From Deltaproteobacteria bacterium (GTDB lineage: Bacteria > Myxococcota_A > UBA9160 > PR03): a stretch of DNA of 64,000 bases. The stretch lies in NCBI GenBank assembly GCA_035063765.1, contig JAPSFT010000010.1:80401-144400 (forward strand), given 5' to 3'. Both the position numbers and the translations under genes were made by a program. The notes below the pieces were generated by a model. It was not told the origin of the DNA, searched no databases, and saw only the letters and a list, made by a program, of their open reading frames with translations. Below are positions 14,144 through 46,321 of the stretch, piece by piece (the stretch's first letter is position 1; each line of letters begins with the position of its first letter).

Positions 14144-14291
14144 GGCAGGCTCCTCCCAATTCCGATCCGGGCCGTATCGTTTCATGCGATCGACCGGTTG
14201 TAAAGGGGGGCGGGCGGTGTTTGCCACCCACCCCGGGCCGGGGATAATCCGGCCGTTGCGGACGGCCGCGCGGCGGCGGTGGAGGCTGGCC

Positions 14292-31200: not shown

Positions 31201-31907
31201 TGGCCGCGGACTCCGAGCGACTCGCGCGGCATCGCGCGGAGGCGCTCGCACGGTCGCAGCGGGCCCTCGCGGCGCCGGTGACGGGAGACCCCCTGGTGCG
31301 CGATGCCGCCGCGGACCACGAGGACGACGAAGGACGCGCCCGCTGGCGCCCTCCCTCGCCTGCGCCCGAGGCGCGGGCGATCGCCGTGGCGGTCGGCACC
31401 GCGATCCATGCGCTGCTCGAGGGGCTGGCGCTGGATGCGCTCGGGGATGTCGAATGGGAGGCAGGGGGCGCGCGACTGCGGGCGAGCCTGGCGAGCGCGG
31501 GTCTCCCGCCGCCGGCGCTCGGGCGGGCGCTCGCGCGTGCGAATGCCCTGGTCGAGCGCCTGCGCAGCGGGCGCCTCGGCGAGCGGCTGCGTGCGTTCGC
31601 GCCGCACGTCGTCGCCCGCGAGCTGCCGGTGCTGCTCCGGCCCGAGGGGGGCGGGTGGCGCGGGGAGCCTGTCGGCGCAGGTGTCGGCGCGATCGATCTC
31701 GTCGTTCGCGATCCCGCCCATGGCTGGACGATCGTCGACTTCAAGACCGACGCCGTGCAGGGTCGCGAGCTGGCGGCGCGCGTCGAGCACCACCGCATCC
31801 AGGGCCTCGCCTACCGGCGCGCACTCGCGGAGGCACTCGCACTCGGTACGCCGCCGCGTGTCGAGCTGTGGTTCCTCGACGCCGACCAGGCCGTGGCGCT
31901 CGACTGA
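28263..31907 (+). CDS. addA: Double-strand break repair helicase-nuclease AddA (UvrD/Rep superfamily 1 plus RecB nuclease)
   Basis: GTG 28263 overlaps the addB stop (GTGA). Motifs EAGAGTGKTS (Walker A), ITFTEAAAAEM, LLVDEFQDTD, VGDPKQSIYGWRNA and TIHAAKGLEF. C-terminal nuclease IDLVVRDPAHGWTIVDFKTD. Confidence 0.9.
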   Translation: MSPADSGAPSERRARDDLARRRAQREFLRPLLVEAGAGTGKTSVLVTRVLAWCLGGGWERAAGVLAGRRGGAPEPETVAARVLDRIVAITFTEAAAAEMEERIATGLQALAVDGAGREPLDPEALPSDPDLRRTRARALLAAFDRLRVSTIHAFCRRLLAEHPQEAGLPPRFTVDAAGVARAAAARAAIEEWLFDPARADDPDLLALVEDGVAAPELEAALEAMLATAIDPGRFAEDPLAPPHLARLVARLDAALGAFVAAGAGRLLALRGRSNGREVAEAAAASLPLLTADGGGLAVLLAQLRLAWPERAQKRLATFAEGRLGDRERAALGEAQGSLVTAARSLAPLLQHALGLDLPRLARTHRVVATLYAEAFRRMHAAGAVGFDGLLLRAHELLARRPEVAARERAHIDQLLVDEFQDTDAEQCALVARLALDEEGGPRPGLFVVGDPKQSIYGWRNADLAAYEAFRERLLAAGGERHLLCVNHRSTPAVLDEVARVMRDVMIETPGEQPPFEPLLASGTQEGSGPLVEYWIASNRDDLEAGAGGAAGTPQRLASEREADHLAQDLLRLAREARERGGRFAWERVGILLRSTGDLEVYLAALREAGVPYTVARDRQYASRREVVEARSLVRAVLDPGDQIALVAALRSAWAGVPDVAWRPLWVHGFPGAVRELLEGAPRARGEIVRIVGTAAAAVASDPAPPPGLAALAGWDQALLHALEVLATLRRSFAREPAERFVERVRTLPLLPAGEAARFLGPWRLANLERFFRELGELLEASRGDTASVLRGLRRAGEHDAERDEGRPARPGGDAVQVMTIHAAKGLEFEHVYLLQVHKREGGGSTGAFLAGTGVLAGEWCLGAARVASLGFDEVRSARERIERAERVRTLYVALTRACRRLVVSGHWSRAASHGVHGVLLAAGRGAALEEAAERGRAAGAGWNGVIEHDGALWRFLDHSGRPRETPLSAGSEGALDEARVAADSERLARHRAEALARSQRALAAPVTGDPLVRDAAADHEDDEGRARWRPPSPAPEARAIAVAVGTAIHALLEGLALDALGDVEWEAGGARLRASLASAGLPPPALGRALARANALVERLRSGRLGERLRAFAPHVVARELPVLLRPEGGGWRGEPVGAGVGAIDLVVRDPAHGWTIVDFKTDAVQGRELAARVEHHRIQGLAYRRALAEALALGTPPRVELWFLDADQAVALD

Positions 31908-32303: not shown

Positions 32304-32439
32304 CTCGTCTCTCCTCCTGTCGCCGTTGCCGAGCAACGCGACGCGTCGAGAAGAGAGAGCAAGGGTCGTGCCGGATGCTCCAGAGGCTTGAAACGAAAGG
32401 AGATGGCTCTAGACGCTGGGAAGGGCTCAATCGAGCGCA

Positions 32440-32516
32440 AATAGATGCATCCAATAGATGCAGCAATGCATCAAAAAGTTGCTCTTGAATGATGAAGTGC
32501 ATCCTGGATATGCATC
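32440..32516. repeat. Array of five (A/G)TGCA(T/G) hexamers inside an AT-rich island
   Basis: AATAGATGCA is repeated directly at 32440 and 32453. Hexamers lie at 32445, 32458, 32466, 32497 and 32510. Two 13-bp-spaced pairs lie 52 bp apart. I counted 30 G+C in the 80 nt from 32441 to 32520 (37.5%), against >70% in the flanks. Confidence 0.6.
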
Positions 32517-32584
32517 TTATGAACTGTCGTTCTGGTTCGGCTCTTGCCCTGGGTGAGGCCGAAGAGGCACCAGTGTCCTATATC

Positions 32585-32617
32585 GACATTGATTTTCATT
32601 TTCATCACGACTACGAT
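32585..32617 (+). promoter_or_regulatory. Fur-box-like site overlapping a TTGATT-N17-TACGAT promoter for bfd
   Basis: GACATTGATTTTCATTTTC (32585-32603) matches the 19-bp Fur consensus GATAATGATAATCATTATC at 14/19 positions. -35-like TTGATT at 32589-32594 and -10-like TACGAT at 32612-32617. Confidence 0.6.
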
Positions 32618-32622
32618 TCCCC

Positions 32623-32859
32623 ATGCCCGCCCGCCTGGGAGTGGAAGCCGTGATCGTCTGTCACTGCCGAGCCAAGAACGACCGCGAGATCCGCCGCGCC
32701 GTGCGCAATGGCGCCGTCACCCTCCAGGAGGTGTCGCGCGCGTGCGGCGCCGCGTCGGCCTGCGGCGGCTGCGCCGGCGCGGTCCACGAGATCATTGCTT
32801 CCGAGCTCGGCGCCTTCGAGCCGCGCAGCGCGGACCTCGACCTCCACGCCACGCACTGA
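32623..32859 (+). CDS. bfd: Bacterioferritin-associated ferredoxin (BFD-like [2Fe-2S] protein)
   Basis: Cys pattern VCHC...(about 30 aa)...CGGC. Other Bfd proteins begin about two residues before the first Cys pair, so GTG 32650 (a 69-aa product) is the more likely start if the promoter call above is right. 32623 is the longest ATG ORF. Confidence 0.85.
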   Translation: MPARLGVEAVIVCHCRAKNDREIRRAVRNGAVTLQEVSRACGAASACGGCAGAVHEIIASELGAFEPRSADLDLHATH

Positions 32860-32887
32860 CGAAGCACGCTCCTTGCTAGCTTCGGGG

Positions 32888-32909
32888 TCCCGTCGCCGGC
32901 GGCGGGACA
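32888..32909 (+). terminator. Stable stem-loop between bfd and bfr (candidate attenuator/terminator)
   Basis: GTCCCGTCG-ccgg-CGGCGGGAC forms a 9-bp stem with one G-U pair. It is followed by AGGAGGG and the GTG 32926 start of bfr. Confidence 0.4.
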
Positions 32910-32925
32910 GCGAAGGAGGGAGCCC

Positions 32926-33408
32926 GTGCGCGGCGATCCGCAGATCCTCGAAGCGCTCAACGAGATCCTCACCGCGGAGCTGACGGCGATCAACCAGTAT
33001 TTCCTGCATGCGCGGATGTGCGGGAACTGGGGCTATCGGCGCCTCGAGAAGAAGAAGCGCGACGAGTCGATCGACGAGATGAAGGACGCCGATCGGCTGA
33101 TCGAGCGGATCCTCTTCCTCGAGGGCGTGCCGAACATGCAGCGCTTGAACCCGGTGCGGGTCGGCGAGGATCCGATCGAGCAGCATCGGCTGGACCTCGC
33201 CATGGAGCTCGACGCGGTGCAGCGCTACAACCGCGCGATCGCGCTGGCACGCGAGAAGGGCGACAACGGCACCCGAGCGCTGCTCGAGCACAACCTGCGG
33301 GGCGAGGAGGACTCGGTGGACTGGCTCGAGTCCCAGCTCCACGTGGTGTCGGAGATCGGCAAGGAGCGCTACCTGGCCGAGCAGCTCGGGGGCGGCGAGG
33401 AGAGCTGA
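32926..33408 (+). CDS. bfr: Bacterioferritin
   Basis: 160 aa. MRGDPQILEALNEILTAELTAINQYFLHARMCGNWGY... carries the ferroxidase ligands (E, ExxH) and the heme-binding Met at the expected position. Confidence 0.95.
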   Translation: MRGDPQILEALNEILTAELTAINQYFLHARMCGNWGYRRLEKKKRDESIDEMKDADRLIERILFLEGVPNMQRLNPVRVGEDPIEQHRLDLAMELDAVQRYNRAIALAREKGDNGTRALLEHNLRGEEDSVDWLESQLHVVSEIGKERYLAEQLGGGEES

Positions 33409-33427
33409 GCGCCCCCGGAGCCGGCTG

Positions 33428-33446
33428 GCAGGCCCGCCTGGCCTGC
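33428..33446 (+). terminator. Short hairpin downstream of bfr
   Basis: GCAGGC-ccgcctg-GCCTGC, beginning 20 nt after the bfr stop. Weak: 6-bp stem and no U-tract. Confidence 0.25.
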
Positions 33447-33485
33447 TACGCTGCGCCGGGAGCGGGGGAGGGCAGGAGGGCGCGC

Positions 33486-34781
33486 ATGCGCGCGTCGGTG
33501 ACCCCCCGTCCGCAGGCCCGCGACGCCGCCGCCCTGGCGGCACGCTACCGCGCGGTGCGCGCTGCGACCGAGCGGCTCGCCGCCCCGCTCTCGCCCGAGG
33601 ACTGCAGCGCGCAGTCGATGCCGGACGCGAGCCCGGTGAAGTGGCACCTCGCCCACACCACCTGGTTCTTCGAGACCTTCGTGCTCGCCGGCGCCCGGCC
33701 CGACCTCGCGCCCTTCGACCCCGCCTTCCGCGTGCTCTTCAACTCCTATTACAACGCGGTCGGTGAGCCGTACCCGCGCCCGCGGCGCGGGCTGCTGACG
33801 AGGCCGTCGCTCGCCGACGTGCTCGCCTATCGGGCGCACGTGGACCGGCACCTGACGGCGTGGCTCGCGGGTACGGAGGCTACCGGGGAGCTGCTCGAGC
33901 GGGTCGAGCTCGGGCTCCAGCACGAGCAGCAGCACCAGGAGCTGATCCTCAGCGACGTGAAGCACCTGCTCGGGCAGCACCCGCTGCGGCCCGCCTACCG
34001 CGCCGATCTCCCGTCTCCGGAGCGGAGCGGCGGCGCGCCGGCGCTCGGCTGGCACCGCTTCGAGGCCGGGGTGCGAGCGATCGGCGCCGGGCCCGGGGCC
34101 GGCTTCCGCTTCGACAACGAGGAGCCGCGCCACCGGCAGCTGCTCGGCACGTTCGTGCTGGCCTCGCGACCCGTGATCAACGCCGAGTACGCCGGCTTCG
34201 TGGAGGCAGGCGGCTATCGCCAGCCCGAGTGGTGGCTCTCCGACGGCTGGAGCGCCGTCCGCGCGGAAGGCTGGCAGGCCCCCGCCTACTGGGAGCGCGG
34301 CCCGGCCGGCTGGTCCGTGTTCACGCTGGGGGGGCTGCGCCCGCTCGATCCAGACGCTCCGGTGTGTCACGTGAGCTTCTACGAAGCGGACGCCTACGCG
34401 CGCTGGGCGGGCGCGCGCCTGCCGACCGAGGCGGAGTGGGAAGCCGCCGCCACCGGGACCGCGGTTGCCGGTCACTTCGTCGAGGACGGGGCCCTCGAGC
34501 CCGCGCCGCTCGGCCCCGACGAGGGCCGGGATGCGCCGGCTCGCCTGTTCGGCGACGTCTGGGAGTGGACCGCGAGCCCCTACGTCGCCTACCCGGGCTA
34601 TCGGCCGGCCGCGGGAGCGCTCGGGGAGTACAACGGCAAGTTCATGTGCAACCAGATGGTGTTGCGAGGCGGCTCGTGCGTCTCTCCGCGACGGCATCTG
34701 CGCGCGAGCTATCGCAACTTCTTCCCGGCTCCCGCGCGCTGGCAGTGGAGCGGCCTGCGGCTCGCGAAGGACGGCGGTTGA
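33486..34781 (+). CDS. egtB: Ergothioneine biosynthesis sulfoxide synthase EgtB (DinB-like plus FGE-sulfatase domains)
   Basis: 431 aa. Motifs SPVKWHLAHTTWFFETF, LGLQHEQQHQELI (His triad for Fe), NEEPRH, GDVWEWTASPY and RGGSC. Confidence 0.9.
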   Translation: MRASVTPRPQARDAAALAARYRAVRAATERLAAPLSPEDCSAQSMPDASPVKWHLAHTTWFFETFVLAGARPDLAPFDPAFRVLFNSYYNAVGEPYPRPRRGLLTRPSLADVLAYRAHVDRHLTAWLAGTEATGELLERVELGLQHEQQHQELILSDVKHLLGQHPLRPAYRADLPSPERSGGAPALGWHRFEAGVRAIGAGPGAGFRFDNEEPRHRQLLGTFVLASRPVINAEYAGFVEAGGYRQPEWWLSDGWSAVRAEGWQAPAYWERGPAGWSVFTLGGLRPLDPDAPVCHVSFYEADAYARWAGARLPTEAEWEAAATGTAVAGHFVEDGALEPAPLGPDEGRDAPARLFGDVWEWTASPYVAYPGYRPAAGALGEYNGKFMCNQMVLRGGSCVSPRRHLRASYRNFFPAPARWQWSGLRLAKDGG

Positions 34782-34858
34782 ACCTCCCGCACCCCGCGGC
34801 TGGCGGCCGTCCGGGAGCAGCCCTCGCGCTCCGCGACCGTGGCCCCGACCGGCTGCGC

Positions 34859-35785
34859 ATGCGCGACGAGATCTGGGCAGGGCTCGCCGCGCCGCGCAAG
34901 ACCCTGCCCTGCAAATGGCTCTACGACGCGGCCGGCTCGGCGCTCTTCGAGCGAATCTGCGAGCTGCCCGAGTACTACCCGACGCGCACCGAACTCGCGA
35001 TCCTCGCGGCCCACGCGGGCGAGATGGCCGAGCGGCTCGGCGCGCGCTGCCTGCTCGTCGAGTACGGGAGCGGCAGCAGCCGCAAGACGCGCCTCCTGCT
35101 GGACCGGCTCGTCGCGCCGGCCGGCTACGTCCCGATCGACATCTCGCGCGCAGCGCTCGCCGCCTCGGCGCAGGCGCTCCGCGAGGCCTACCCCGCCCTC
35201 GAGGTGCTCCCGGTCTGCGCCGACTACGCGGACCCGATCGAGCTGCCCCGCCCGCGCCGGCCGGCCGAGCGCCGCGCGGTGTTCTTCCCGGGCTCCACGA
35301 TCGGGAACTTCACGCCCCCCGAGGCGCAGCGCTTCCTGGCCCGGATGGCGCGCGCGGCCGGCCCCGGCGGCGGGATCCTGATCGGAGCGGACCTGCGGAA
35401 GGACCGGGCGATCCTGGAGGCCGCCTACGACGACGCCGCCGGCGTGACAGCCGCCTTCGACCGCAACCTGCTGGTGCGGGCGAACCGCGAGCTGGGCGCC
35501 GACTTCCCGGTCGAGCGGTTTCGACATCGCGCGCTGTGGAACGACGTCGACGGCCGGATCGAGATGCACCTGGTCTCGCTCGACCCGTGCGTCGTGACGG
35601 TGGCCGGCCGCCGCTTCGCCCTCGCGGCCGGTGAGACCATCCACACCGAGAACTCCTACAAGTACACGCTGCCGGGCTTCGCCAGGCTCGCGGCCGGCGC
35701 AGGCCTCGCCGTGCGCCGCGTCTGGAGCGATCCGCGCGGGTGGTTCAGCGTGCAGTGGCTCGTCTCCGCAGCGGCCCCGGAGTGA
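34859..35785 (+). CDS. egtD: L-histidine N-alpha-methyltransferase EgtD
   Basis: Motifs LPCKWLYDAAGSALFERICELPEYYPTRTE, EYGSGSSRKT, FFPGSTIGNF and ENSYKYT. An in-frame TTG at 34778 overlapping the egtB stop (TTGA) is an alternative, translationally coupled start. Confidence 0.9.
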   Translation: MRDEIWAGLAAPRKTLPCKWLYDAAGSALFERICELPEYYPTRTELAILAAHAGEMAERLGARCLLVEYGSGSSRKTRLLLDRLVAPAGYVPIDISRAALAASAQALREAYPALEVLPVCADYADPIELPRPRRPAERRAVFFPGSTIGNFTPPEAQRFLARMARAAGPGGGILIGADLRKDRAILEAAYDDAAGVTAAFDRNLLVRANRELGADFPVERFRHRALWNDVDGRIEMHLVSLDPCVVTVAGRRFALAAGETIHTENSYKYTLPGFARLAAGAGLAVRRVWSDPRGWFSVQWLVSAAAPE

Positions 35786-35818
35786 CGCTACGCTCCGCCG
35801 CCCTCTCCGGGGAGCGCC

Positions 35819-38125
35819 GTGTCCGAGAGCGAAAGCGTCCAGATCGGGGCCCGCGAGGGTCTCGTCTTCGTGGTGGAGGGGGACGGGAGCGCGCGGGTGC
35901 GTTGGGGGGAGGCGGCCGATGCCCTCGGTCCGATCGCCCTGCGCGCGCAGGCGGGCGCCGTGGCACGCGCCTCCCGCATCGCCGGCGCGCAGCGCTTCGC
36001 CGGCGAGGACGATCTCGGTGGCTTCGACGCGCTCGCGCTCGACTGGGAGCCGGCCGCGCCGCTCGCCGTGCGCAGCACCGTGCGCGCCTACCGCGAGCGG
36101 CCCCTCCTGGTCTTCCGTCTCGAGGCGGCGGAGACGCTGCGCCGCTTCGCGACCGGCCGCTTCGACGAGCCCTCGCTGGCCTGGCCCTGGTGCCGGCCGG
36201 GCGAGCGCCGGGTCGGCGGGCTCCCCGAAGGCACGCGCGCCTTCGGCCACGCCTACACCGAGTTCGCGCTGCCGACCCAGTCCGATCCCTCCTGCGCGAG
36301 CTTCTTCCTGCTGCCCTTCCGGCCGGCCGTCGTCTTCCCGCTCTGGCTCGTGGCGCCGGGCGGAGACGCGCTCCTGCTGGCGCCGCTCGACGCCTTCCAC
36401 GAGCAGGTGATCGCGGTCCCGCGCGACCCCGAGGCGGCGGCCTCCGGGCTGCGCTGCGGCTGGCACGGCGATCTCGACGCGGCGCCGGCCGGCTTCGCGA
36501 GCGAGCTCGCGCTGTGGGCCGCGCCGGGCCCGCGCGCGGCGCTGGACGCCCACGCGGCCGTGCTGCGCGCGCGCGCCGGGACGCGGCGTCCGGACCGCTA
36601 CGCCGACACGCTCGGCAGCCGGCTCTCCTACTGGACCGACAACGGCGCGGCGTACTGGTATCGCACGGAGCCGGGAGCGGGCGGCGTCGCCGGGACGCTC
36701 GCCGCGGCGGCAGGCGGACTGCGCGAGCAGGCGATCCCCTTCGGCGTCTTCCAGCTCGACTCCTGGTTCTACCCGCAGGAGACGCCGCGCCCCTTCGACG
36801 ACCCGGACGCCTCGGTGCCGCCCACGGGACTCCTCACCTGGGACGCGCGCGCCGACGTCCTGCCCGAGGGCATCCCCGCGTTGCGCCGCGCGCTCGGCGA
36901 TCCACCGCTCGCCGCCCACTGCCGGCACTTCTCGTCGGCGTCGCCGTACTTCGAGACGCACGAGGCCTGGCGCGACGGCGACCGCGCGCACCCGACGGGG
37001 CCCGCCCTCTACGAGGAGCTGCTGCAGCGGGCCGCCGGCTGGGGCGTCGAGACCTTCGAGCACGACTGGCTGATCGAGTGCTTCCTCGGCGTGCGCGGGC
37101 TGCGCGCGGCGCCCGGGCGGGCGCGCGCCTGGCAGGAGGGACTCGACCGGGCGGCGGCGGAGCTCGGCCTCACGCTCCAGTGGTGCATGGCCTCGCCGGC
37201 CGACTTCCTCCAGACGGTGACGCTCGAGCGCGTCACCTCGATCCGGACCAGCGGCGACTACCGCTACCTGATCGGCCCTGCGGCGCTCTGGACCTGGTTC
37301 CTGCACGGCAATGCGCTGGCCCGCGCGCTCGGCCTGTGGCCCTTCAAGGACGTGTTCCTCTCGCGTCGCGACGGCGGCGGCCCGCGCGACGGCGATCCCC
37401 ATGCGGAGCTCGAGGCGCTGCTCGCGGCGCTCTCGGGCGGGCCGGTCGGGATCGGCGACCGGGTGGGACGCAGCGACCGCGCGCTGATCCTGCGCACCTG
37501 CCGCGAGGACGGCGTGCTGCTGAAGCCCGACGTGCCGGTGGCGGCGCTCGACCGATGCTGGCGCGGGCACGCGGTGCTCGAGCCGAACCCGCTGGTCGGT
37601 GAGGCCCACAGCACGCATCCCGCGGGCCGCTGGCACTACCTGGTGGCGGTGAACGCCTGGCGCGGAGGGGAGCCGCTGCGCTTCCGCCTGCCGCTCGCCG
37701 ACCTCGGCACGCTCGCGCCGGCCGCGCCGGTGCTCGCCTGGGACTGGCGGCGGCAGCACGCCGAGGTGGTCCCTCCCGGCGGCGGCTTCGAGCTCGGGCT
37801 CGCCCCGCTCGACTGGGACTACCGGGTGCTCTGCCCGCTGCTGCCGGCGGGCCTCGCCGTGATCGGCGACGCCGGCCGCTACGCCACGGCAGGGGATCGC
37901 CGCCTGACCCAGGTCCGGGCCACGCCGGAGGGCGTGGCCTTCGACGCCATCGGTGCCGCGGGGGAGCAGGTCCGCATCACGGGCTGGGCGCAGCGGCGCC
38001 CGCGAGCGGCGCGAGCCGGGGCGCGGGCGCTCGCCGTCGACTGGGACGGCGCGAGCGCCCGATGGAGCGTCGCCCTCGCGATCGGCCCGGCGGGCCGCCA
38101 GGCGGTCGAGGTGACGGCGGGATGA
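35819..38125 (+). CDS. Cytoplasmic clan GH-D-like glycoside hydrolase/transglycosidase (GH27/36, raffinose-synthase-like), function unknown
   Basis: 768 aa, GTG start after GGGGAG, no signal peptide. Motifs YWTDNGAAYWY, FGVFQLDSWFY (compare GH36 FVLDDGWF), VETFEHDWL (compare the KWDxN nucleophile region) and IRTSGDY (compare GH27/36 W-R-x-S-x-D acid/base). Confidence 0.5.
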   Translation: MSESESVQIGAREGLVFVVEGDGSARVRWGEAADALGPIALRAQAGAVARASRIAGAQRFAGEDDLGGFDALALDWEPAAPLAVRSTVRAYRERPLLVFRLEAAETLRRFATGRFDEPSLAWPWCRPGERRVGGLPEGTRAFGHAYTEFALPTQSDPSCASFFLLPFRPAVVFPLWLVAPGGDALLLAPLDAFHEQVIAVPRDPEAAASGLRCGWHGDLDAAPAGFASELALWAAPGPRAALDAHAAVLRARAGTRRPDRYADTLGSRLSYWTDNGAAYWYRTEPGAGGVAGTLAAAAGGLREQAIPFGVFQLDSWFYPQETPRPFDDPDASVPPTGLLTWDARADVLPEGIPALRRALGDPPLAAHCRHFSSASPYFETHEAWRDGDRAHPTGPALYEELLQRAAGWGVETFEHDWLIECFLGVRGLRAAPGRARAWQEGLDRAAAELGLTLQWCMASPADFLQTVTLERVTSIRTSGDYRYLIGPAALWTWFLHGNALARALGLWPFKDVFLSRRDGGGPRDGDPHAELEALLAALSGGPVGIGDRVGRSDRALILRTCREDGVLLKPDVPVAALDRCWRGHAVLEPNPLVGEAHSTHPAGRWHYLVAVNAWRGGEPLRFRLPLADLGTLAPAAPVLAWDWRRQHAEVVPPGGGFELGLAPLDWDYRVLCPLLPAGLAVIGDAGRYATAGDRRLTQVRATPEGVAFDAIGAAGEQVRITGWAQRRPRAARAGARALAVDWDGASARWSVALAIGPAGRQAVEVTAG

Positions 38126-39135
38126 GCGGCGGGCGGCGCGTGGTCGCAAGCGCGCCCGCGCGCGCCAACCTGATCGGCAATCCCTCCGATCTCTACGGCG
38201 GCGCGGTGCTCGGCTGCGCGGTGCCGTTGCGGGCGCGCGTCGCGCTCGAGCCGGCCGGTGGGCTCGAGATCGCGAGTGGTGGCGCGAGCGCGCGGGTCAC
38301 CGGGATCGCCGACCTCGGCCTGCGCGGCGATCGCTTCGACGTCGCGCGCGCCGCGCTGCGCGCCGAGCACGCCCAGACCGGCGTGCTGCCGGACGTGCGG
38401 ATCGACTTGACGACGGAGATCCCCTTCGGCAGCGGCATCGCGGGCTCGACGGCGCTGCTGCTCGCCCTCCTGCGGGCGCTGGCCGCGTGGCGCGGCGAGG
38501 CGCCGTCCCCTTACGCGCTCGCGGAGCGCTCGCGTGCCACCGAACGCGGGCTGCTCGGGGTCGCCTGCGGTTGGGTCGACCACTACCTGTGCAGCTTCGG
38601 GGGGCTCCGCTACGTGGACCTGCGGGGCAAGGAGCGCGACGACGCACCGCCCGGCTGCCCCTATGCGACCGTCGAGGACCTGGCGCCGCACGTGCCGGAT
38701 CTCCCCTTCCTGCTCGCCTTCACCGGCGTCGCCCACCACTCGGGCTCCGTGCACGCGCCGATCCGCGCGCGCTGGGAGCGCGGCGAGGTCGCCGTCGTGC
38801 AGGCCTATCGGCGCATGGGCGCGATCGCGCGCGAGGGCAAGAGCGCGCTCCTTCACGGAGACTGGCCGGCGCTCGGCGCCCTCTTCGAGGAGAACCACGC
38901 ACTGACCCGCTCGCTCGGCGGGTCGGCGGAGGCCGTCGAGCGCCTGATCGGGGCCGCCCTGCGCGCGGGCGCAGCGGGCGCCAAGCTGGCCGGCGCCGGC
39001 GGTGGCGGGACGGTCGCCGTGCTGTGGCCGGATCGCGATCCCGCTCCGCTCGAGCGCGCGCTGCGCGCGGCGGGCGCCGCTGCGCTCTATCGGCCCGCGC
39101 CCGTCGAGGGCGTGCGCCTGGAGGAGGATCCGTGA
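38122..39135 (+). CDS. GHMP kinase, glucuronokinase-like subfamily
   Basis: ATG overlaps the upstream stop (ATGA at 38122-38125). Motif I variant ARANLIGNPSDLYGG, motif II EIPFGSGIAGSTALL, motif III KLAGAGGGGTVAVL. Confidence 0.8.
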   Translation: MSGGRRVVASAPARANLIGNPSDLYGGAVLGCAVPLRARVALEPAGGLEIASGGASARVTGIADLGLRGDRFDVARAALRAEHAQTGVLPDVRIDLTTEIPFGSGIAGSTALLLALLRALAAWRGEAPSPYALAERSRATERGLLGVACGWVDHYLCSFGGLRYVDLRGKERDDAPPGCPYATVEDLAPHVPDLPFLLAFTGVAHHSGSVHAPIRARWERGEVAVVQAYRRMGAIAREGKSALLHGDWPALGALFEENHALTRSLGGSAEAVERLIGAALRAGAAGAKLAGAGGGGTVAVLWPDRDPAPLERALRAAGAAALYRPAPVEGVRLEEDP

Positions 39136-39986
39136 GCTACGAGACGTTGCGGACCGCGAAGGACGAGGGCGTGCTGACCGTCACCTTGAACCGCCCGGAG
39201 CGCCTGAACGCCTTCACGAGGCAGATGATGCACGACCTGCTGCAGCTCTTCGACGCCGTCGACGCCGACGACGAGGTGCGCGCCGTGGTGGTGACGGGCG
39301 CGGGGCGCGGCTTCTGCGCGGGCGCCGACCTCGGTGGGGGCGGCGGCACCTTCGACGCGGGCACGGCCGCGACGGCCGAGGTGCCGCGCGACGGCGGCGG
39401 GCGCGTCGCCCTGCGCATCTTCGAGTGCCGCAAGCCGGTGATCGCCGCGATCAACGGACCGGCGGTGGGTGTCGGCGCGACCATGACCCTGCCGATGGAC
39501 GTGCGCATCGCGAGCGAGGCGGCGCGCTTCGGATTCGTGTTCTGCCGGCGCGGCATCGTGCCCGAGGCGGCGAGCTCGTGGTTCCTGCCGCGCGTGGTCG
39601 GCATCTCGCGGGCGATGGAGTGGGTGGCGACCGGGCGCGTCTTCCCGGCCCAGGAGGCGCTCGCCGGCGGCCTGGTGTCGCGGGTGGTCGCGCCCGGCGA
39701 GCTGCTGCCCGTGGCGCACGGGATCGCGCGCGAGATCGCCGACCACACGAGCGCGGTGTCGGTGGCGCTGGCCCGGCAGATGCTGTGGCGGATGCTCGGC
39801 GCCGACCATCCGATGGAGGCGCACCGCGTCGACTCGCAGGCGATCTTCGCGATGGGCCGCTCGCCCGACGCCTACGAGGGCGTGCAGAGCTTCCTCGAGA
39901 AGCGCCCGGCGCGCTTCTCGATGAAGGCCTCCCGCGACATGCCGGCGTTCTTCCCGTGGTGGAAGGAGCGCCCCTTCCGCGCGTAG
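39132..39986 (+). CDS. Enoyl-CoA hydratase/isomerase (crotonase) family protein
   Basis: GTG overlaps the kinase stop (GTGA at 39132-39135), after GGAGGA. Motifs LNRPERLNAF, VVVTGAGRGFCAGADLG and INGPAVGVGATMTL. Confidence 0.85.
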   Translation: MSYETLRTAKDEGVLTVTLNRPERLNAFTRQMMHDLLQLFDAVDADDEVRAVVVTGAGRGFCAGADLGGGGGTFDAGTAATAEVPRDGGGRVALRIFECRKPVIAAINGPAVGVGATMTLPMDVRIASEAARFGFVFCRRGIVPEAASSWFLPRVVGISRAMEWVATGRVFPAQEALAGGLVSRVVAPGELLPVAHGIAREIADHTSAVSVALARQMLWRMLGADHPMEAHRVDSQAIFAMGRSPDAYEGVQSFLEKRPARFSMKASRDMPAFFPWWKERPFRA

Positions 39987-39989
39987 CAC

Positions 39990-41042
39990 CTACAGGAAGA
40001 CCGGATGGACCGCGTTCACGAGGAGGCCCAGGGCCAGCAGCAGGCCGGCGAGCCGCGTCAGCAGGAAGGCCCAGGCCACGTACCAGAGCGGCCAGAGGGG
40101 ATACCCGGGCGGCGCCGCCGCCGGGCGGGGCGCGCCGATCGTCCGGATCACCTGCCGCGCGCGCGGCAGGGCCGCGAAGGTGGCGAGCGTCCAGAGGCCG
40201 AGCGTTCCGGCGAGGACCAGCACGCCGACCACGGCGAAGTACGCGACGATCAGCGCCTGCGCCACCCAGCGCGCCTGGCTCTCGCCGAGCAGCACCGGCA
40301 GCGTGTGGATGCCCTTGGCGGAGTCGGCCTCGAGCTTGTCGATGTGCTTGCCGAACAGCACGACCGTGACCAGCAGCGCGTAGGGGAGGCTCGCCGCGAT
40401 CACCCAGGCCGGGATCTGTCCGGTGGTGACGAAGTAGGTGCCGCCGATCATCAGCGGTCCCCAGACCAGGAACACGCCCGGCTCGCCGAGCCCGTGGTGC
40501 TTGAGCTTGAGCGGCGGCGCCACGTAGAAGACGCTGATGAAGAGGCCCGCGAGCGCGAAGGCGATCACCGGCCAGCCGCGCTGCGCGTAGAGGTAGACGA
40601 GGATCGCGAGGTCGAGCAGGTTCGTGACCGCGATCGCCGTGACCAGGCCCGGCTTCGAGATCAACCCGGAGAGGATCGGGTGCGGCGCGTACTGGCCGCG
40701 CACGTAGCTCTCGGAGTCCACCCCGCCCGAGAGGTCGAACCAGTCGTTGATCATGTTGTTGGCGGCGTGGGCGAGCACGAGGCCGAGCAGGGCGAGCGCG
40801 AAGAAGCCCCCGTTCGCGTCCACCGGCGTGGGGCCCGCGACGGCCAGCAGGCCACCGAGCACGGCCGAGGTGATCGTCATCGGGAAGACACTCGCGCGCG
40901 TGATCAGGAGCCAGCGCGAGACGAGGTCGGGGCGCCCGCCGGCGCGCATCGCCGCCAGGTTCTGGGTCCGCAGCACCTCGGCCCAGCTCTTCCAGAGCGG
41001 GCGGGCGGGGGCATCGCTGCGCGTGTCGGCGGCGCTCGCCAT
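39990..41042 (-). CDS. UbiA family prenyltransferase (MenA-like)
   Basis: 350 aa with about 9 TM helices. First Asp-rich motif NNMINDWFDLSGGVD and second motif KHIDKLEADSAKG. Confidence 0.85.
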   Translation of the reverse strand: MASAADTRSDAPARPLWKSWAEVLRTQNLAAMRAGGRPDLVSRWLLITRASVFPMTITSAVLGGLLAVAGPTPVDANGGFFALALLGLVLAHAANNMINDWFDLSGGVDSESYVRGQYAPHPILSGLISKPGLVTAIAVTNLLDLAILVYLYAQRGWPVIAFALAGLFISVFYVAPPLKLKHHGLGEPGVFLVWGPLMIGGTYFVTTGQIPAWVIAASLPYALLVTVVLFGKHIDKLEADSAKGIHTLPVLLGESQARWVAQALIVAYFAVVGVLVLAGTLGLWTLATFAALPRARQVIRTIGAPRPAAAPPGYPLWPLWYVAWAFLLTRLAGLLLALGLLVNAVHPVFL

Positions 41043-41127
41043 CGGGGGACCTCCGGAGGGCCGCGAGGCTAGCGGCGTGCCTGCGCGGGGTCGAGCGCCG
41101 CGCTACCGATCCGAGCGGGAGGATGCG

Positions 41128-42693
41128 ATGCGCGCCGGCGCACGGCTCGAGACGCGGAGCGGCTGGATCGAAGGCGCGATCGAGGAGCCGGAGGCCGCGG
41201 GCGGCCGAGCGCTGCGCGTCTTCCGCGGCGTGCCCTACGCGCGCCCGCCGCTCGGCGCGCTGCGCTGGGCGCCACCCGCACGCGAGGCCGCCTGGCGCGG
41301 CGTGCGCGAGGCGCTGGCCTTCGGTCCGAGCGCACCGCAGCGCCCGAGCGTGCTGATGCGCATGCTCGGGATGGAGGGCGGTCCCGGGCACGACGAGGAT
41401 TGCCTCACGCTCTGCGTCTGGACCCCGGCGCGGGTCGAGGAGGGGCTGGACGGCGGGCGCCGCCCGGTTCTGGTGTGGCTCCACGGGGGCGCCTTCACGG
41501 GGGGAGGCTGCGCGCTGCCGGTCTACGACGGCGGCGCGCTCGCGCGCCGCGGCGACGTGGTCGTGGTGACGATCCAGTACCGGCTCGGCGCGCTCGGCTG
41601 GCTCGTGCTCCCGGAGCTGCTCGATGCGGGTGAGGCCGGCGCGAACTTCGGGCTGCTCGACCAGATCGCGGCGCTCGGCTGGGTGCGCGAGCACGCCGAG
41701 CGCCTGGGCGGTGACCCCGAGCGCGTCACGGTGTTCGGGGAGTCGGCCGGCGCGATGTCGATCGGTGCCCTGCTCGGCGCGCCCGCTGCGCGAGGGCTCT
41801 TCGCGCGCGCGGTCCTCCAGAGCGGCGCGGCCGACAACGTGACCCCGCGCGCGGGCGCCGAGCGCGTCGCCGCGAGCTTCCGCGCCGCACTCGGTGGGGG
41901 CCCCCGGGATCTCGCCGCCCTGCGCGCGCTGCCGGCCGAGGCGATCCTCGGCGCGCAGCAGCGCGCCGCCGACGAGAGCTGGCGCCACGTCGAAGGCCTC
42001 GCCTTCCAGCCGGTCTGCGAGGAGGGCGCGGCGGCCGCGGTGCTCCCCCGCCCGCCGCTCGCCGCGGTCGCCGGCGGCGCGGCGGCCGGCGTGGCGGTCC
42101 TCGCCGGCACCAACCGCGACGAGTGGAGGCTCTTCGCGCTCGCGGACCCCAAGCTCGCCGGGCTCGACGACGGGGCCTTCGTGCGCCGCGTCCTGCGCGC
42201 ACCGCCGCGCGGCGTCGGCGATCCGCACGCCTTCGCCCGGCGCGCGCTCGCGGGCTATCGCGCGGCGCGCCCCGAGGCGCCGCCCCGCGAGCTCTGGCTC
42301 GCCTTCCAGACCGACCGCGTCTTCCGGATCCCGGCGCTCCGCCTGCTGGCAGCGCAGCGCCCGCACGAGCCGCAGTCCTTCGCGTATCTCTTCACGTGGG
42401 CCTCGCCCGCGCTCGACGGCAGGCTCGGCGCCTGTCACGCGCTCGAGGTGCCGTTCGTCTTCGGCCGGGTCGACGGTCCGCGCGCCGCGCCGCTCGTCGG
42501 CGCAGGCCCCGAGGCGCGGCGCCTGTCCGAGCGCATGATGGACGCCTGGCTCGCCTTCGCCCGCGACGGCGACCCGGGCTGGCCCGCCTGGGACGACGCC
42601 AAGCGCGCGACCATGGTGCTCGGGCGCGAGAGTGCGCTCGCGTGGGACCCGGACGGGGCCGAGCGGCGCATCTGGGAGCCCGTGACGGGCTAG
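41128..42693 (+). CDS. Carboxylesterase/lipase, type B, paralog 2
   Basis: 521 aa from ATG 41128, after GGGAGGA. Motifs FRGVPYARPP, EDCLTLCVW, WLHGGAF and GESAGAMS. Colinear with the 17418-18929 product. Confidence 0.9.
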   Translation: MRAGARLETRSGWIEGAIEEPEAAGGRALRVFRGVPYARPPLGALRWAPPAREAAWRGVREALAFGPSAPQRPSVLMRMLGMEGGPGHDEDCLTLCVWTPARVEEGLDGGRRPVLVWLHGGAFTGGGCALPVYDGGALARRGDVVVVTIQYRLGALGWLVLPELLDAGEAGANFGLLDQIAALGWVREHAERLGGDPERVTVFGESAGAMSIGALLGAPAARGLFARAVLQSGAADNVTPRAGAERVAASFRAALGGGPRDLAALRALPAEAILGAQQRAADESWRHVEGLAFQPVCEEGAAAAVLPRPPLAAVAGGAAAGVAVLAGTNRDEWRLFALADPKLAGLDDGAFVRRVLRAPPRGVGDPHAFARRALAGYRAARPEAPPRELWLAFQTDRVFRIPALRLLAAQRPHEPQSFAYLFTWASPALDGRLGACHALEVPFVFGRVDGPRAAPLVGAGPEARRLSERMMDAWLAFARDGDPGWPAWDDAKRATMVLGRESALAWDPDGAERRIWEPVTG

Positions 42694-42736: not shown

Positions 42737-43384
42737 GTGTCGTCGATCCCGCTCCCGCTCCGCCAGCTCTCCGCCCGCGAGGCGCGCTTCTTCGCGGCGG
42801 CCGCCGACGCCGCGTTTCCGCACGGCACCACGCGAGACGGCCCGCCGCTGCCCTCCGGTACCGAGGCGGGCGTCGTGGCGCACCTCGATGGCTGGCTCGA
42901 GCTCCTGCCGCGGCGCAACCGCACGCTGATCCGCCTGCTCATCGTCTTCTTCGAGTACGCCACCTGGGTGCTCCCGGCGCCGGGCCGGGGCGGCCGCCGC
43001 CGCTTCACGGCGCTCGCGCCCGAGCAGCGCGTCGCGGTCTTCGAGGCCTGGAGCGGCAGCCGCCTGCGCCTGCGCCGGCTCGTGTTCGCGAGCCTGCGCA
43101 TGCTCCTGACCTCGTCCTACTTCGCGAGCCCTGCCGTCCTGCGCGCCACGGGGCTCGCGCCGCTCGCCTTCGCGACGCCGGTGGTCGAGGCGGACCTCCT
43201 GTACCCGCCGGTGGGCCAGGCGCGCGACGCGATCCGCTGGCGCCGCGAGGACCTCTCCCGCCCGCCGCTGCACGCTCCGCTCGACCCGCACGGGCCGCTC
43301 CATCCAGACTACACAGAGGAAGGTGCCAGCACCGGGGAGAGGGCCCGCGCCGGGGAGAGCGCCGGCGCCGGGGCACGCGGATGA
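42737..43384 (+). CDS. Gluconate 2-dehydrogenase subunit 3-like small partner protein
   Basis: 215 aa with GTG start. The N-terminal pattern LSAREARFFAAAADAAFPHG is typical of this family. Its stop overlaps the GMC gene start. Confidence 0.55.
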   Translation: MSSIPLPLRQLSAREARFFAAAADAAFPHGTTRDGPPLPSGTEAGVVAHLDGWLELLPRRNRTLIRLLIVFFEYATWVLPAPGRGGRRRFTALAPEQRVAVFEAWSGSRLRLRRLVFASLRMLLTSSYFASPAVLRATGLAPLAFATPVVEADLLYPPVGQARDAIRWRREDLSRPPLHAPLDPHGPLHPDYTEEGASTGERARAGESAGAGARG

Positions 43385-44904
43385 GCGGAGCCGTGCGCGT
43401 CTTCGCCGACTACACGGGTCCCGTGGCCGATCGCTGCGACGTGGTGGTCGTGGGCTCCGGGCCCTGCGGCGCGGTCGCCGCCTACGAGCTGGCCGCCGCC
43501 GGCCGCGACGTGGTGCTGCTCGAGGAGGGCCCTCCCTTCACGCCCGCCGACTTCGAGCTCGACGGCGCGCGCTCGATGGCGCGGACCATGCGCGAGGGCG
43601 GCCTGCGCTTCACCTCCGGCTACGTGATGCCGACCATGCAGGCGATCGCGCTGGGTGGGGGCTCGCTCGTGAACTCCGCGATCTGCGGGCGCTGCCCCGA
43701 CTTCCGGCTCGCCGAGTGGGCCGAGGCGGCGGCGCTCGAGCGCACGGCGCGCAGCGATCTCGACCCCCACTACGACGCGATTGCGGCCTTCCTCGGCATC
43801 GCGCCGACGCCGGACGAGGTGCAGGGGCGGCGCAACCTGCTGTTCCGGGACGGCTGCCAGGCGCTCGGCTGGGACAACGAGCCGTGCGCGCGCAACGTGG
43901 TCGGCTGCCGCGGCAGCGGCGAGTGCTTCACCGGCTGCCGCGCGCGCGCCAAGCAGTCGATGGACATCTCCTACGTGCCGGCGGCGATCCGGGCCGGGGC
44001 GCGCGTCTACACCTCCGTGCAGGTGCAGCGCGTGCTCGCGGCGGGCCGCCGCGCCGGCGGCGTCGAGGGCCGCGTGGCCGCGCCCTTCACCGGCGCGCCC
44101 GGACCGTCGTTCCGCATCGAGGCGAAGGCGGTGGTGCTGGCGGCGGGCGTGCTCGCGACGCCGCTCCTGCTGCGGCGCAGCGGGGACCTCGCGAACCGCT
44201 CGAAGCAGGTCGGCGAGAACCTCCAGTTCCATCCCGGGACTTCGGTGATGGGCGTCTTCCCGGAGCCCGTGGAGCCCGTCTTCGGGGCGACCCAGGGCTA
44301 CCAGTCGCTGCACTTCCTGCGCGAGGGCTTCAAGCTCGAGACGCTGTGGGCGCCGCCGGGCGTGCTGGCGGTGCGCCTGCCGGGGAGCGGGCTCGAGCTC
44401 GAGCAGAAGCTCCTCGACATGCGGCGCGCGGCGGTCTGGGACTGCATCGCGAGCTGCAAGCGCTCGCGCGGGCGGGTGCGCGAGCGGGGGCGCTCGCTCC
44501 AGCCCGCCGTCCACTGGCGCTTCCATCCCGACGACGCGCGCACGCTCGGCCGCGCCGTGTGGGCGCTCGCGCAGATCTTCTTCGCCGCCGGCGCCGAGCG
44601 CATCCTGCCCGGCGTCGCAGGCCTGCCCGACGAGCTCGGGTCGCTCGAGGCGGCGCGCGTGCTCGAGCGCCAGCCGCCGCGGGCCGCCGACCTGGTGGTG
44701 GCGTCGACCCATGCCTTCGGGACCACGCGCATGCACGGCGACCCCGCCCGCGGCGTCGTCGACGAGGACCTGAAGGCGCACGACCTCGACAACCTCTACG
44801 TGGTCGACACGGGGGTGTTCCCCGGCTCGCCGGCGGTGAACCCGATGTTCACCGGGATGGCGCTCGCGCGGCGTTCGGCGCTCGCCCTGGCGGCACGGAT
44901 CTGA
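43381..44904 (+). CDS. GMC family FAD-dependent oxidoreductase
   Basis: 507 aa. Motifs DVVVVGSGPCGAVAAYELA (FAD GxGxxG), GGGSLVNS, and C-terminal HAFGTTRMHGD...DNLYVVDTGVFP. Confidence 0.9.
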   Translation: MSGAVRVFADYTGPVADRCDVVVVGSGPCGAVAAYELAAAGRDVVLLEEGPPFTPADFELDGARSMARTMREGGLRFTSGYVMPTMQAIALGGGSLVNSAICGRCPDFRLAEWAEAAALERTARSDLDPHYDAIAAFLGIAPTPDEVQGRRNLLFRDGCQALGWDNEPCARNVVGCRGSGECFTGCRARAKQSMDISYVPAAIRAGARVYTSVQVQRVLAAGRRAGGVEGRVAAPFTGAPGPSFRIEAKAVVLAAGVLATPLLLRRSGDLANRSKQVGENLQFHPGTSVMGVFPEPVEPVFGATQGYQSLHFLREGFKLETLWAPPGVLAVRLPGSGLELEQKLLDMRRAAVWDCIASCKRSRGRVRERGRSLQPAVHWRFHPDDARTLGRAVWALAQIFFAAGAERILPGVAGLPDELGSLEAARVLERQPPRAADLVVASTHAFGTTRMHGDPARGVVDEDLKAHDLDNLYVVDTGVFPGSPAVNPMFTGMALARRSALALAARI

Positions 44905-45385: not shown

Positions 45386-46321
45386 ATGTTCTCCGTCCTC
45401 CTGGATCCGGATCTGGAGGACGACGTGAAGCTCCACGACCCGAGGCCGGCGCTCCCCGCCGCGCGCCGCCTCCCCGTCGCGATGCTGTGTCTATCGCTTG
45501 CGACGGGTGCCGCCGGCTGCCGCCGCGAGCAGGGCGGCCCGGGCGTCTACGACGCCCATGGCGTCGTGGAGTCGGTCGACCACGAGTACGGCCAGGTCGT
45601 GATCCACCACGACGACATCCCGGGCCTGATGCCCGAGATGACGATGAGCTTCGACGTGCCGGACCGGGCCCTGCTCGAGCTGCTCGAGCCGCGCCAGGTC
45701 GTGGACTTCCAGCTCGAGTTCACGGGCAAGGCCTACAACGTGGTGGCGGTGACGCCGCGCGGCACCGCTCCGGACACGGGGCACGACGCCGCGTCGCTCG
45801 ACGACGTCACGCCGCAGGGAGACCCGGCGCCTCCCTTCCGGCTCACCGACCAGGACGGCAACCCGCTCGCGCTCTCCGACCTGCGCGGCAAGGCCGTGCT
45901 GCTCGATTTCATCTACACGAGCTGCCCCGGTCCGTGTCCGATCCTGACGGGCCTGCACGTCGAGGTGCAACGGGCGCTCGCGCCGGCCCTGCGCGATCGC
46001 GTGCGGCTCGTCTCGATCTCGCTCGACCCGCTCCGCGACACGCCCGCCGTCCTGCGCGAGTACGCGCGCAAGCGCGGCGCCGACACCGCCAACTGGTCGT
46101 TCCTGACCGGCACGCAGGGGGAGGTAGAGGCCGTGCTGAAGGCCTACGGGGTCGGCTCGGCCCGCCAGCCCGACGGCACGATCGGCCACCTGGTCGTCAC
46201 CTTCCTGATCGACGGCGAGGGACGCATCGTCGAGCGCTTCGTCGGGCTCGAGGGCCACGATCCGAAGCAGGTGCGCGCCGCGCTCGAGCGGGTGGCGGGC
46301 GCGCGCCCGCCGGCCGGCTGA
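45386..46321 (+). CDS. CusF-like copper-binding domain fused to an SCO1/SenC thioredoxin-fold copper chaperone, lipoprotein
   Basis: Lipobox LSLATGAAGC. CusF pattern HGVVESVDHEYGQVVIHHDDIPGLMPEMTMSFDV. SCO pattern FRLTDQDGNPLALSDLRGKAVLLDFIYTSCPGPCP ... GHLVVTFLIDGEGRI. The alternative GTG start at 45425 follows GGAGGA. Confidence 0.85.
   Translation: MFSVLLDPDLEDDVKLHDPRPALPAARRLPVAMLCLSLATGAAGCRREQGGPGVYDAHGVVESVDHEYGQVVIHHDDIPGLMPEMTMSFDVPDRALLELLEPRQVVDFQLEFTGKAYNVVAVTPRGTAPDTGHDAASLDDVTPQGDPAPPFRLTDQDGNPLALSDLRGKAVLLDFIYTSCPGPCPILTGLHVEVQRALAPALRDRVRLVSISLDPLRDTPAVLREYARKRGADTANWSFLTGTQGEVEAVLKAYGVGSARQPDGTIGHLVVTFLIDGEGRIVERFVGLEGHDPKQVRAALERVAGARPPAG

Follow-up and report, generated by a model that had tools for sequence, protein, structure and literature searches.

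Three plus-strand genes at positions 35819–39986 of a 64,000-nucleotide (nt) stretch of contig JAPSFT010000010.1, from a Deltaproteobacteria bacterium of the Myxococcota_A with a soil-type genome, encode a 768-residue protein that has gone unannotated, a GHMP kinase and a crotonase-superfamily protein, and lie just behind the ergothioneine genes egtB and egtD. The whole 64,000-nt stretch is referred to below as the window, and positions without another locus name are counted from its first letter. The 768-residue protein has a clan GH-D-type fold with a GH36-like arrangement of catalytic motifs, and the best-supported conserved functional core is this GH36-like enzyme together with a kinase carrying the motif GNPSD. 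We consider it probable, though well short of certain, that the protein represents an unannotated glycosidase family, a remote sister of the GH36 raffinose-synthase/alkaline alpha-galactosidase subfamily within clan GH-D, and that it acts as a cytoplasmic retaining alpha-glycosidase which, with an anomeric and probably uronate-specific kinase, salvages a sugar. The logic of salvage by a glycosidase and an anomeric kinase is already known; new here are a very large glycosidase family without annotation, a kinase subfamily uncharacterised in bacteria, and a crotonase as an extra partner.

The fold and the conservation of motifs are established computationally. An AlphaFold (AF2) model of the 768-residue protein, built from 52 homologues (pLDDT 94.6, pTM 0.94), shows the three-part architecture of clan GH-D: an N-terminal beta-sandwich (residues 1–235), a (beta/alpha)8 barrel (approximately residues 240–590) and C-terminal beta domains. 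When the model was compared with the PDB using Foldseek, the clear top match was 7exf, Arabidopsis RS6/AtAkaGal3 (E 1e-27, TM-scores 0.68/0.73, 13% identity), followed by GH97, GH31 and GH27/36 enzymes. Sequence searches of the PDB gave no useful match for the protein itself (phmmer), and a narrow family profile reached 7exf at E 2.1 only; a broader superfamily profile of 83 diverse members, 22–72% identical to the window protein, was needed for a significant match, and found 7exf by sequence alone at E 1e-9. An earlier reading of the DNA (the sequence-only reading) had proposed a clan GH-D-type identity from motifs, and on this fold, structural match and motif alignment agree, with standard hidden Markov model (HMM) libraries giving no match; Pfam and NCBIfam did not place the protein outside the glycoside hydrolases.

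The three motifs cited in that reading, FQLDSWFY, FEHDWL and IRTSGDY, are all present in the translation. Residues D314, D416, D480, D511 and D547 are invariant across the 83 members, and R476 and E414 are each conserved in at least 90% of them. HMM alignment places IRTSGD480Y (R476-x3-D480) onto IRASDD447FY (R443-x3-D447) of 7exf, so that the RxxxD motif is common to both, and PFKD511 onto PDWD479. The structure paper assigns to 7exf a nucleophile, D383 in KVD, and an acid/base, D447 in RASDD, with D479 touching the sugar via water (PMC9912918). The FEHDW segment lies outside the alignment to 7exf, with Glu in place of the Lys of KxD, and D416 is placed by its invariance and by its 64-residue distance from D480; the spacing D416-D480-D511 (+64, +95) compares with D383-D447-D479 (+64, +96) in 7exf. 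These correspondences predict D416 as catalytic nucleophile and D480 as acid/base, while the D314 motif FQLDSWFY, matched without an alignment, presumably corresponds to the DDGW sugar-binding motif of GH27/GH36. The two families depart from one another at two places: a nearly invariant Glu takes the place of Lys in KxD (family consensus E-Q/H-D-W, as in YEQDW or FEHDW), and DDGW has become (L)DSW. Both changes suggest that the sugar in subsite -1 is probably not galactose.

Compared with the GH36 raffinose-synthase/alkaline alpha-galactosidase type, of which 7exf is both the best fold match and the sole significant sequence match in the PDB, the window protein shares the three-part architecture, a cytoplasmic location, the RxxxD acid/base motif, the PDWD-type Asp and the 64-residue spacing from predicted nucleophile to predicted acid/base. 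It differs in its low identity (~13%), in matching neither Raffinose_syn nor Melibiase, in the two substitutions described above, in belonging to a bacterial family and, probably, in its substrate. A second comparison is with the GH_New2 alpha-galactosidases (B2K_10610, ZOBELLIA_334), remote GH27/GH36 relatives proposed for clan GH-D and represented by 92 GenBank sequences, in which Asn492/Thr472 replace the acid/base Asp of GH27/36 and the key residues are D437, D470 and N492 (+33, +55) (bioRxiv 10.64898/2026.05.19.726164). Both are recently recognised GH27/GH36-related families with a three-domain layout; however, the window family retains its invariant Asp at +64, within RxxxD, and has far more members. 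Identity with GH_New2, which is set apart by its published description (supplement file 2), was rejected on catalytic-motif grounds. The N-terminus of the window protein, VSESESVQIGAREGLVFVVEGDG, has no signal-peptide-like n- or h-region by inspection, in line with the sequence-only reading, which had described the protein as lacking a signal peptide; inspection showed none in its clade either.

A profile search of 1.84 billion cluster representatives recovered at least 3,896 clusters (50% identity) at E<=1e-3. Close homologues number in the hundreds, all of them 'hypothetical' and without Pfam domains, and the named ones come from Myxococcota or 'Deltaproteobacteria' metagenome-assembled genomes (MAGs). 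Scanning one genome per GTDB species yielded 372 stretches that encode glycosidase relatives, from species that are mostly uncultured Myxococcota, Binatia and Acidimicrobiia of soils and sediments. Distant family members extend further at the N-terminus, and in some of them the protein is joined to CBM35/CBM6, to a SASA esterase or to a Por secretion tail, fusions that support a carbohydrate-active superfamily.

Gene linkage, likewise established computationally, was counted at species level in the best 80 of the 372 loci, with 10-kb flanks; these 80 loci (numbered with the prefix L) come from Myxococcota, Binatia, Acidimicrobiia and other Actinomycetota, and all are MAGs. A GHMP kinase with the GNPSD motif lies near the glycosidase gene in 34–35 of them and directly beside it in about 30. 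Its placement varies, with about 20 kinases directly downstream and co-directional, 9 divergent upstream, 2 co-directional upstream, and 4 downstream past at least one gene (1.1–6.1 kb), so that the pairing is seen in four arrangements, with two kinase subfamilies and in three phyla. The gap between glycosidase and kinase is 1.1 kb in L038 and L050, and in L033 a PEP_mutase/isocitrate-lyase-family gene (12349–13137) stands just downstream of the glycosidase and ahead of the kinase, the same family being found downstream in L046. Three loci (L013, L014, L043) have a kinase and NTP_transferase operon divergent from the glycosidase, in three (L018, L030, L035) a GT4 glycosyltransferase gene adjoins it, and in eight (the L022 clade) an SMP-30/gluconolactonase-family gene is divergent upstream. 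Where they occur, the GT4 and NTP_transferase neighbours suggest that the glycoside being turned over is one of the cell's own products. Five of the contigs (L001, L006, L015, L020 and L035) are labelled 'uncultured Spirochaetales', and their gene content and synteny match Myxococcota loci; these labels are probably taxonomic mislabels in third-party annotation (TPA) assemblies.

The kinase contains the Pfam domains GHMP_kinases_N (PF00288), GHMP_kinases_C (PF08544) and GalKase_gal_bdg (PF10509), and its AF2 model has the GHMP fold (pLDDT 91.7). Its motif I, ANLIGNPSDLYGG (GNPSDLYGG), fits the pattern (L/F)(L/I)GNPSD(V/L)Y.G and matches VGFLGNPSDVYFGR, a peptide sequenced from purified Lilium glucuronokinase (PMC2823444); the sequence-only reading had pointed to the NPSD motif, which is present in the translation, and had called it glucuronokinase-type. 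The GNPSD motif is kept in both glycosidase-linked kinase subfamilies, one of which is ~55–72% and the other 30–39% identical to the window kinase; the divergently placed kinases fall in the lower range and still carry it. No NCBIfam equivalog reaches its cutoff with the window kinase, and the best NCBIfam kinase scores belong to mevalonate kinase models (TIGR00549, 98.6 bits against a cutoff of 163; NF003036, 107.6 bits against 403). A mevalonate kinase or isovaleryl-CoA (aib-like) pathway, suggested by the best NCBIfam and PDB kinase matches in combination with the crotonase, was rejected because these scores are far under the cutoffs, because motif I is of the sugar-kinase/glucuronokinase (GlcAK) type, and because relatives pair with nucleotidyltransferases and hexuronate genes. 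Motif I of mevalonate kinases is of the GEHAVV type, unlike that of the window kinase.

Relatives of the kinase provide further context. In two assemblies (L085 and L088), a 57%-identical kinase gene overlaps that of a GalU-like nucleotidyltransferase by 11 nt inside a hexuronate cluster, which is complete in L085 (2065–7894) as UxaC, UxaE, GalU-like nucleotidyltransferase, GNPSD kinase and a D-mannonate-oxidoreductase-type (UxuB-like) short-chain dehydrogenase/reductase (SDR), and is visible from UxaE to the SDR in L088 (1389–5697). This cluster is a candidate bacterial uronate-1-kinase/UDP-uronate salvage module. In another assembly, a kinase relative stands before an NAD-dependent epimerase-family gene. 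A 62%-identical homologue is found with no GH36-like gene in L084 (3824–7017; ENA ERZ25072999, a 5.8-Mb contig), two genes from an egtD homologue on the opposite strand. Judged by domains, motif and neighbours, the window kinase fits an anomeric sugar kinase feeding nucleotide-sugar formation, and its substrate is plausibly a hexuronate, for which motif I and the contexts of its relatives give the only hint.

The crotonase matches ECH_1 (PF00378) at 180 bits and is a full-length member of NCBIfam NF006109 (PRK08260; 451 bits against a cutoff of 320). In the PDB it matches 6IJK from Cupriavidus necator H16 over its full length (E 2e-114), a protein published as a 'novel type isomerase' of the crotonase family. 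At what appear to be the sites of the canonical hydratase Glu pair, the window protein carries GVGATM and FGFVFCRRGIVPE (FGFVF), and the Glu of its VPE lines up with the Asp of IPD in the isomerase PaaG. Canonical hydratases, such as rat ECHS1, have two catalytic glutamates, in the motifs GGGCE-L and QPE; in a comparison with rat ECHS1, both appear to be replaced in the window protein. Given this apparent replacement and the position of the VPE Glu, the protein is not a textbook hydratase. It had been read from sequence as a CoA-ester hydratase/isomerase, of which the crotonase superfamily stands, the protein being closer to the isomerase-type 6IJK than to a canonical hydratase. 6IJK likewise appears to lack the canonical Glu pair and has a Glu at the VPE/TPE position aligned to the catalytic Asp of PaaG, but it is not known to accompany a glycosidase or sugar kinase. 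A MenB-like crotonase partnering the convergent UbiA/MenA-like prenyltransferase was also considered, and was rejected because the crotonase is of the PRK08260/6IJK type rather than MenB and because the UbiA-family gene is on the opposite strand.

Orthologous crotonases, scoring 431–483 bits to the cluster profile, are present in 13 of the 80 loci (L001–L008, L011, L016, L022, L051 and L057). The trio recurs in 13 other species-level loci; as the unit described in the sequence-only reading it holds for its glycosidase-kinase core, found in 34–35 loci, and less so for the crotonase with its 13. The order in L057, an Acidimicrobiales MAG, is kinase (divergent), glycosidase, crotonase, with a 9-nt gap between the last two and a 67%-identical crotonase orthologue; its nearest glycosidase relative, L042, has no crotonase. 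In L045, which has no kinase, the gene directly behind the glycosidase encodes a paralogue-level crotonase (39% identical), again with a 9-nt gap. The crotonase gene is probably co-transcribed with the glycosidase gene and recurrently linked to it, but crotonase paralogues also occur 4–8 kb from the glycosidase in several unrelated loci, a background that is not negligible, and we therefore regard the link as suggestive rather than established. In the literature, we found nothing on the glycosidase-kinase-crotonase gene combination.

In the window itself, a GC content of ~75% produces many spurious open reading frames (ORFs), from which frame statistics based on GC at third codon positions (GC3) pick out the three genes (Table 1). 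The stop codon of egtD occupies 35783–35785 and the glycosidase begins with a GTG at 35819, the earliest start codon past the in-frame upstream stop of its ORF; in three public contigs with an identical 768-residue protein, independent gene calls gave 768, 337 and 284 residues for the trio and the lengths listed in Table 1 for egtB and egtD. Coordinates, the 33-nt gap after egtD and both overlaps, ATGA at 38122–38125 (glycosidase/kinase) and GTGA at 39132–39135 (kinase/crotonase), are as first read. A terminator scan of the region found no terminator-like site between egtD and the trio, and a promoter scan, uninformative at such GC content, found no sigma-70-like promoter in the region. Since no terminator follows egtD and a convergent UbiA-family gene lies 3 nt past the crotonase stop, the transcription unit likely runs from egtB through egtD, glycosidase and kinase to the crotonase.

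Table 1. Genes and motifs of the egt-glycosidase region, in window coordinates.
Feature	Position	Strand	Basis or remarks
egtB (ergothioneine sulfoxide synthase)	33486..34781	+	NCBIfam TIGR03440, 559 bits against cutoff 360; 431 residues in independent gene call
egtD (histidine N-alpha-methyltransferase)	34859..35785	+	TIGR03438, 400 bits against cutoff 291; 308 residues in independent gene call
Spacer egtD-glycosidase, 33 nt	35786..35818	+	GGGGAG Shine-Dalgarno-like site; no terminator
Predicted glycosidase or transglycosidase, GH36-like (clan GH-D), 768 residues, cytoplasmic	35819..38125	+	GC3 0.95; AF2 model, Foldseek, profile search
FQLDSWFY motif, residues 311–318	36749..36772	+	Glycosidase D314
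FEHDWL motif, residues 413–418	37055..37072	+	Glycosidase E414, D416
IRTSGDY (RxxxD) motif, residues 475–481	37241..37261	+	Glycosidase D480
GHMP kinase, predicted anomeric sugar-1-kinase, 337 residues	38122..39135	+	GC3 0.92; Pfam domains, motif I
Kinase GNPSD motif, residues 19–23	38176..38190	+	Motif located in translation
Crotonase-superfamily protein, PRK08260 subfamily (6IJK-type 'isomerase'), 284 residues	39132..39986	+	GC3 0.98; Pfam and NCBIfam
UbiA-family prenyltransferase, convergent; marks 3' end of operon	39990..41042	-	PF01040, 96.8 bits

On the reading we favour, the glycosidase (possibly also a transglycosidase) would free a monosaccharide from an alpha-glycoside inside the cell, whether taken up from outside or synthesised there, for which a compatible solute or a glycolipid headgroup would be candidates; the kinase would phosphorylate the freed sugar at C1, and a nucleotidyltransferase would return the sugar-1-phosphate to the nucleoside diphosphate (NDP)-sugar pool. 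The sugar would more likely be a hexuronic acid than galactose, and the crotonase may process the acyl or aglycone part as a CoA ester. We infer the order of hydrolase and kinase (including hydrolysis as opposed to transfer), phosphorylation at C1 and the identity of the sugar. The scheme recalls the glucuronokinase and UDP-sugar pyrophosphorylase route of plants and zebrafish, with which it shares a GHMP kinase with motif I GNPSD.Y.G, a nucleotidyltransferase partner in related loci and, through the 57%-identical relatives, an association with hexuronate clusters; the free sugar would come here from the proposed glycosidase, whereas in that route it comes from myo-inositol oxygenase. Release, C1 phosphorylation by a GHMP kinase and activation to an NDP-sugar, as proposed here, are also the steps of alpha-galactosidase/galactokinase pairs and of the fucokinase/GDP-fucose pyrophosphorylase FKP of Bacteroides, but these employ other enzyme families at both steps, and the crotonase is an extra member of the operon here.

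Several observations weigh against this reading. The window protein has no Pfam or NCBIfam match at E<=0.01 (Melibiase, Glyco_hydro_36N/C and Raffinose_syn included), and among its distant relatives Raffinose_syn is matched weakly in 2 of 60. To our knowledge, no family member has a known enzyme activity, and with Glu in place of the KxD Lys and a single Asp of the DD pair kept, chemistry or specificity may differ from GH36. The solved structures nearest to the kinase (WcbL heptokinase, archaeal mevalonate kinase, galactokinase and fucokinase) are only ~20–25% identical to it. No kinase lies within 10 kb of the glycosidase in over half of the 80 loci, and members of the kinase family are also found without the glycosidase, so that the pair is facultative; uronate catabolic genes next to the glycosidase were found in none of the 80 loci. 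Finally, a scheme of cleavage followed by phosphorylation leaves no step for the crotonase, as the sequence-only reading had already remarked.

The position of the trio 33 nt behind egtD, with no terminator between, could also be taken to mean that it acts on a product of EgtB and EgtD, modifying or recycling a thiol or histidine-betaine metabolite in glycosylated form. Eight of the 80 loci have egtB-egtD upstream of the glycosidase, and the kinase homologue of L084 lies near an egtD homologue; however, these eight are the closest Myxococcota relatives, the L084 egtD is on the opposite strand in a locus without the glycosidase, and egt genes are missing from the 10-kb flanks of most glycosidase-kinase pairs in other phyla. 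Moreover, the glycosidase of L005–L008 and L011 is immediately preceded by genes for a cupin and/or an AIG2-thioesterase, some of them on the opposite strand, and where the upstream flank reaches egtD (L005–L007 and L011) these unrelated genes part egtD from the glycosidase. A location directly downstream of egtD, true in the window, is thus confined to close relatives and interrupted in several of them, and the egtB-egtD adjacency is lineage-specific local synteny outside the conserved module. For the same reasons, the thiol- or histidine-related function that had been floated from the sequence is not supported, and we consider it very improbable. The trio may equally be asked whether it shares a pathway at all, its genes being co-transcribed with egtB and egtD as an operon of convenience in which the crotonase is a housekeeping beta-oxidation-type enzyme. 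Four-nucleotide overlaps are not unusual in the window (GTGA at 28263–28266, in an AddAB-like pair; ATGA at 43381–43384, in a two-subunit GMC oxidoreductase), so that those of the trio argue for an operon but not, alone, for a shared pathway; the crotonase subfamily is widespread, with a close match in Cupriavidus, its members accompany the glycosidase in 13 loci only, in unrelated loci the glycosidase often has a crotonase paralogue less than 10 kb away, and the kinase occurs alone in L084 and L087. Convenience nevertheless sits poorly with a glycosidase-kinase pair that recurs across arrangements, kinase subfamilies and phyla as described above, and with a crotonase placed directly after the glycosidase in two independent lineages, L057 and L045, and we judge this explanation unlikely.

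A biosynthetic role deserves similar scrutiny, in which the GH36-like protein would be a transglycosidase or synthase, comparable to raffinose and stachyose synthases, or a phosphorylase run in reverse on the sugar-1-phosphate from the kinase, and would make an alpha-glycoside, a compatible solute for instance, instead of breaking one down. Its closest structural and sequence relative, AtAkaGal3/RS6, has hydrolase as well as synthase activity (PMC9912918). The cytoplasmic location of the glycosidase, the GT4 and NTP_transferase neighbours at some loci and the replaced KxD Lys, which suggests altered chemistry, all agree with such a role. Against it, no donor-forming enzyme (for example, a galactinol-synthase-like GT8) is linked, a free-sugar kinase beside a glycosidase is a classic signature of salvage, and we know of no GH-D phosphorylase; synthesis therefore seems to us an unlikely answer. 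Salvage itself may take a more specific form, which we hold to be unlikely: the glycosidases would be a new, non-galactose family of clan GH-D, acting, as the most attractive candidate function, as intracellular alpha-glucuronidases or other alpha-uronidases on a cell-made glycoside such as an alpha-glucuronosyl-diacylglycerol-type glycolipid or a uronate-containing solute, and the trio would be an undescribed turnover pathway. In that case, the headgroup sugar would be recycled via a bacterial glucuronokinase, while a crotonase-type isomerase would deal with the CoA ester of the lipid or acyl portion.

Some further features of the window may be recorded. Upstream of the trio, a bacterioferritin gene is followed by egtB and egtD on the plus strand (32926–35785), with no egtA, egtC or egtE nearby, and against the model for the selenoneine synthase SenA the window EgtB reaches 365 bits, under the cutoff of 420. 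The stretch ahead of bfr (32340–32920) is an AT-richer intergenic region with three terminator-like hairpins, the 32–34 kb bin having 68.6% GC against ~75% elsewhere, and probably holds the regulatory or promoter region of the bfr/egt block. Two plus-strand genes at 24787–31907, encoding 1159 residues (PD-(D/E)XK nuclease domain) and 1214 residues (UvrD helicase and PD-(D/E)XK) and sharing the GTGA overlap given above, look like an AddAB/AdnAB-like helicase-nuclease pair. Downstream, a plus-strand carboxylesterase ORF (40747–42693) overlaps the minus-strand UbiA-family gene at its 5' end, which places its true start near 41.1 kb. It is followed by a plus-strand Gluconate_2-dh3-like small subunit and GMC oxidoreductase (42737–44904, with the ATGA overlap), a pair that is also downstream of the trio in L001, L002, L011 and L016, and thus a case of conserved synteny, and that recurs in L084 (10102–12296) near the kinase homologue. 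A plus-strand gene at 45386–46321 encodes a CusF-like copper-binding domain fused to a SCO1/SenC domain, and the genes at 11618–14143 (minus strand, 841 residues) and 14256–15599 (plus strand, 447 residues), well supported by GC3, have no Pfam match.

In conclusion, if the salvage reading is true, these results provide the fold, the catalytic residues and a first functional context for a very large family that current domain libraries miss, and characterisation in the manner of CAZy would probably establish either a new family or a deep subfamily within GH36. It would also mean that bacterial glucuronokinase-like sugar-1-kinases take part in nucleotide-sugar salvage, and the link to the crotonase may reveal the natural glycoside.

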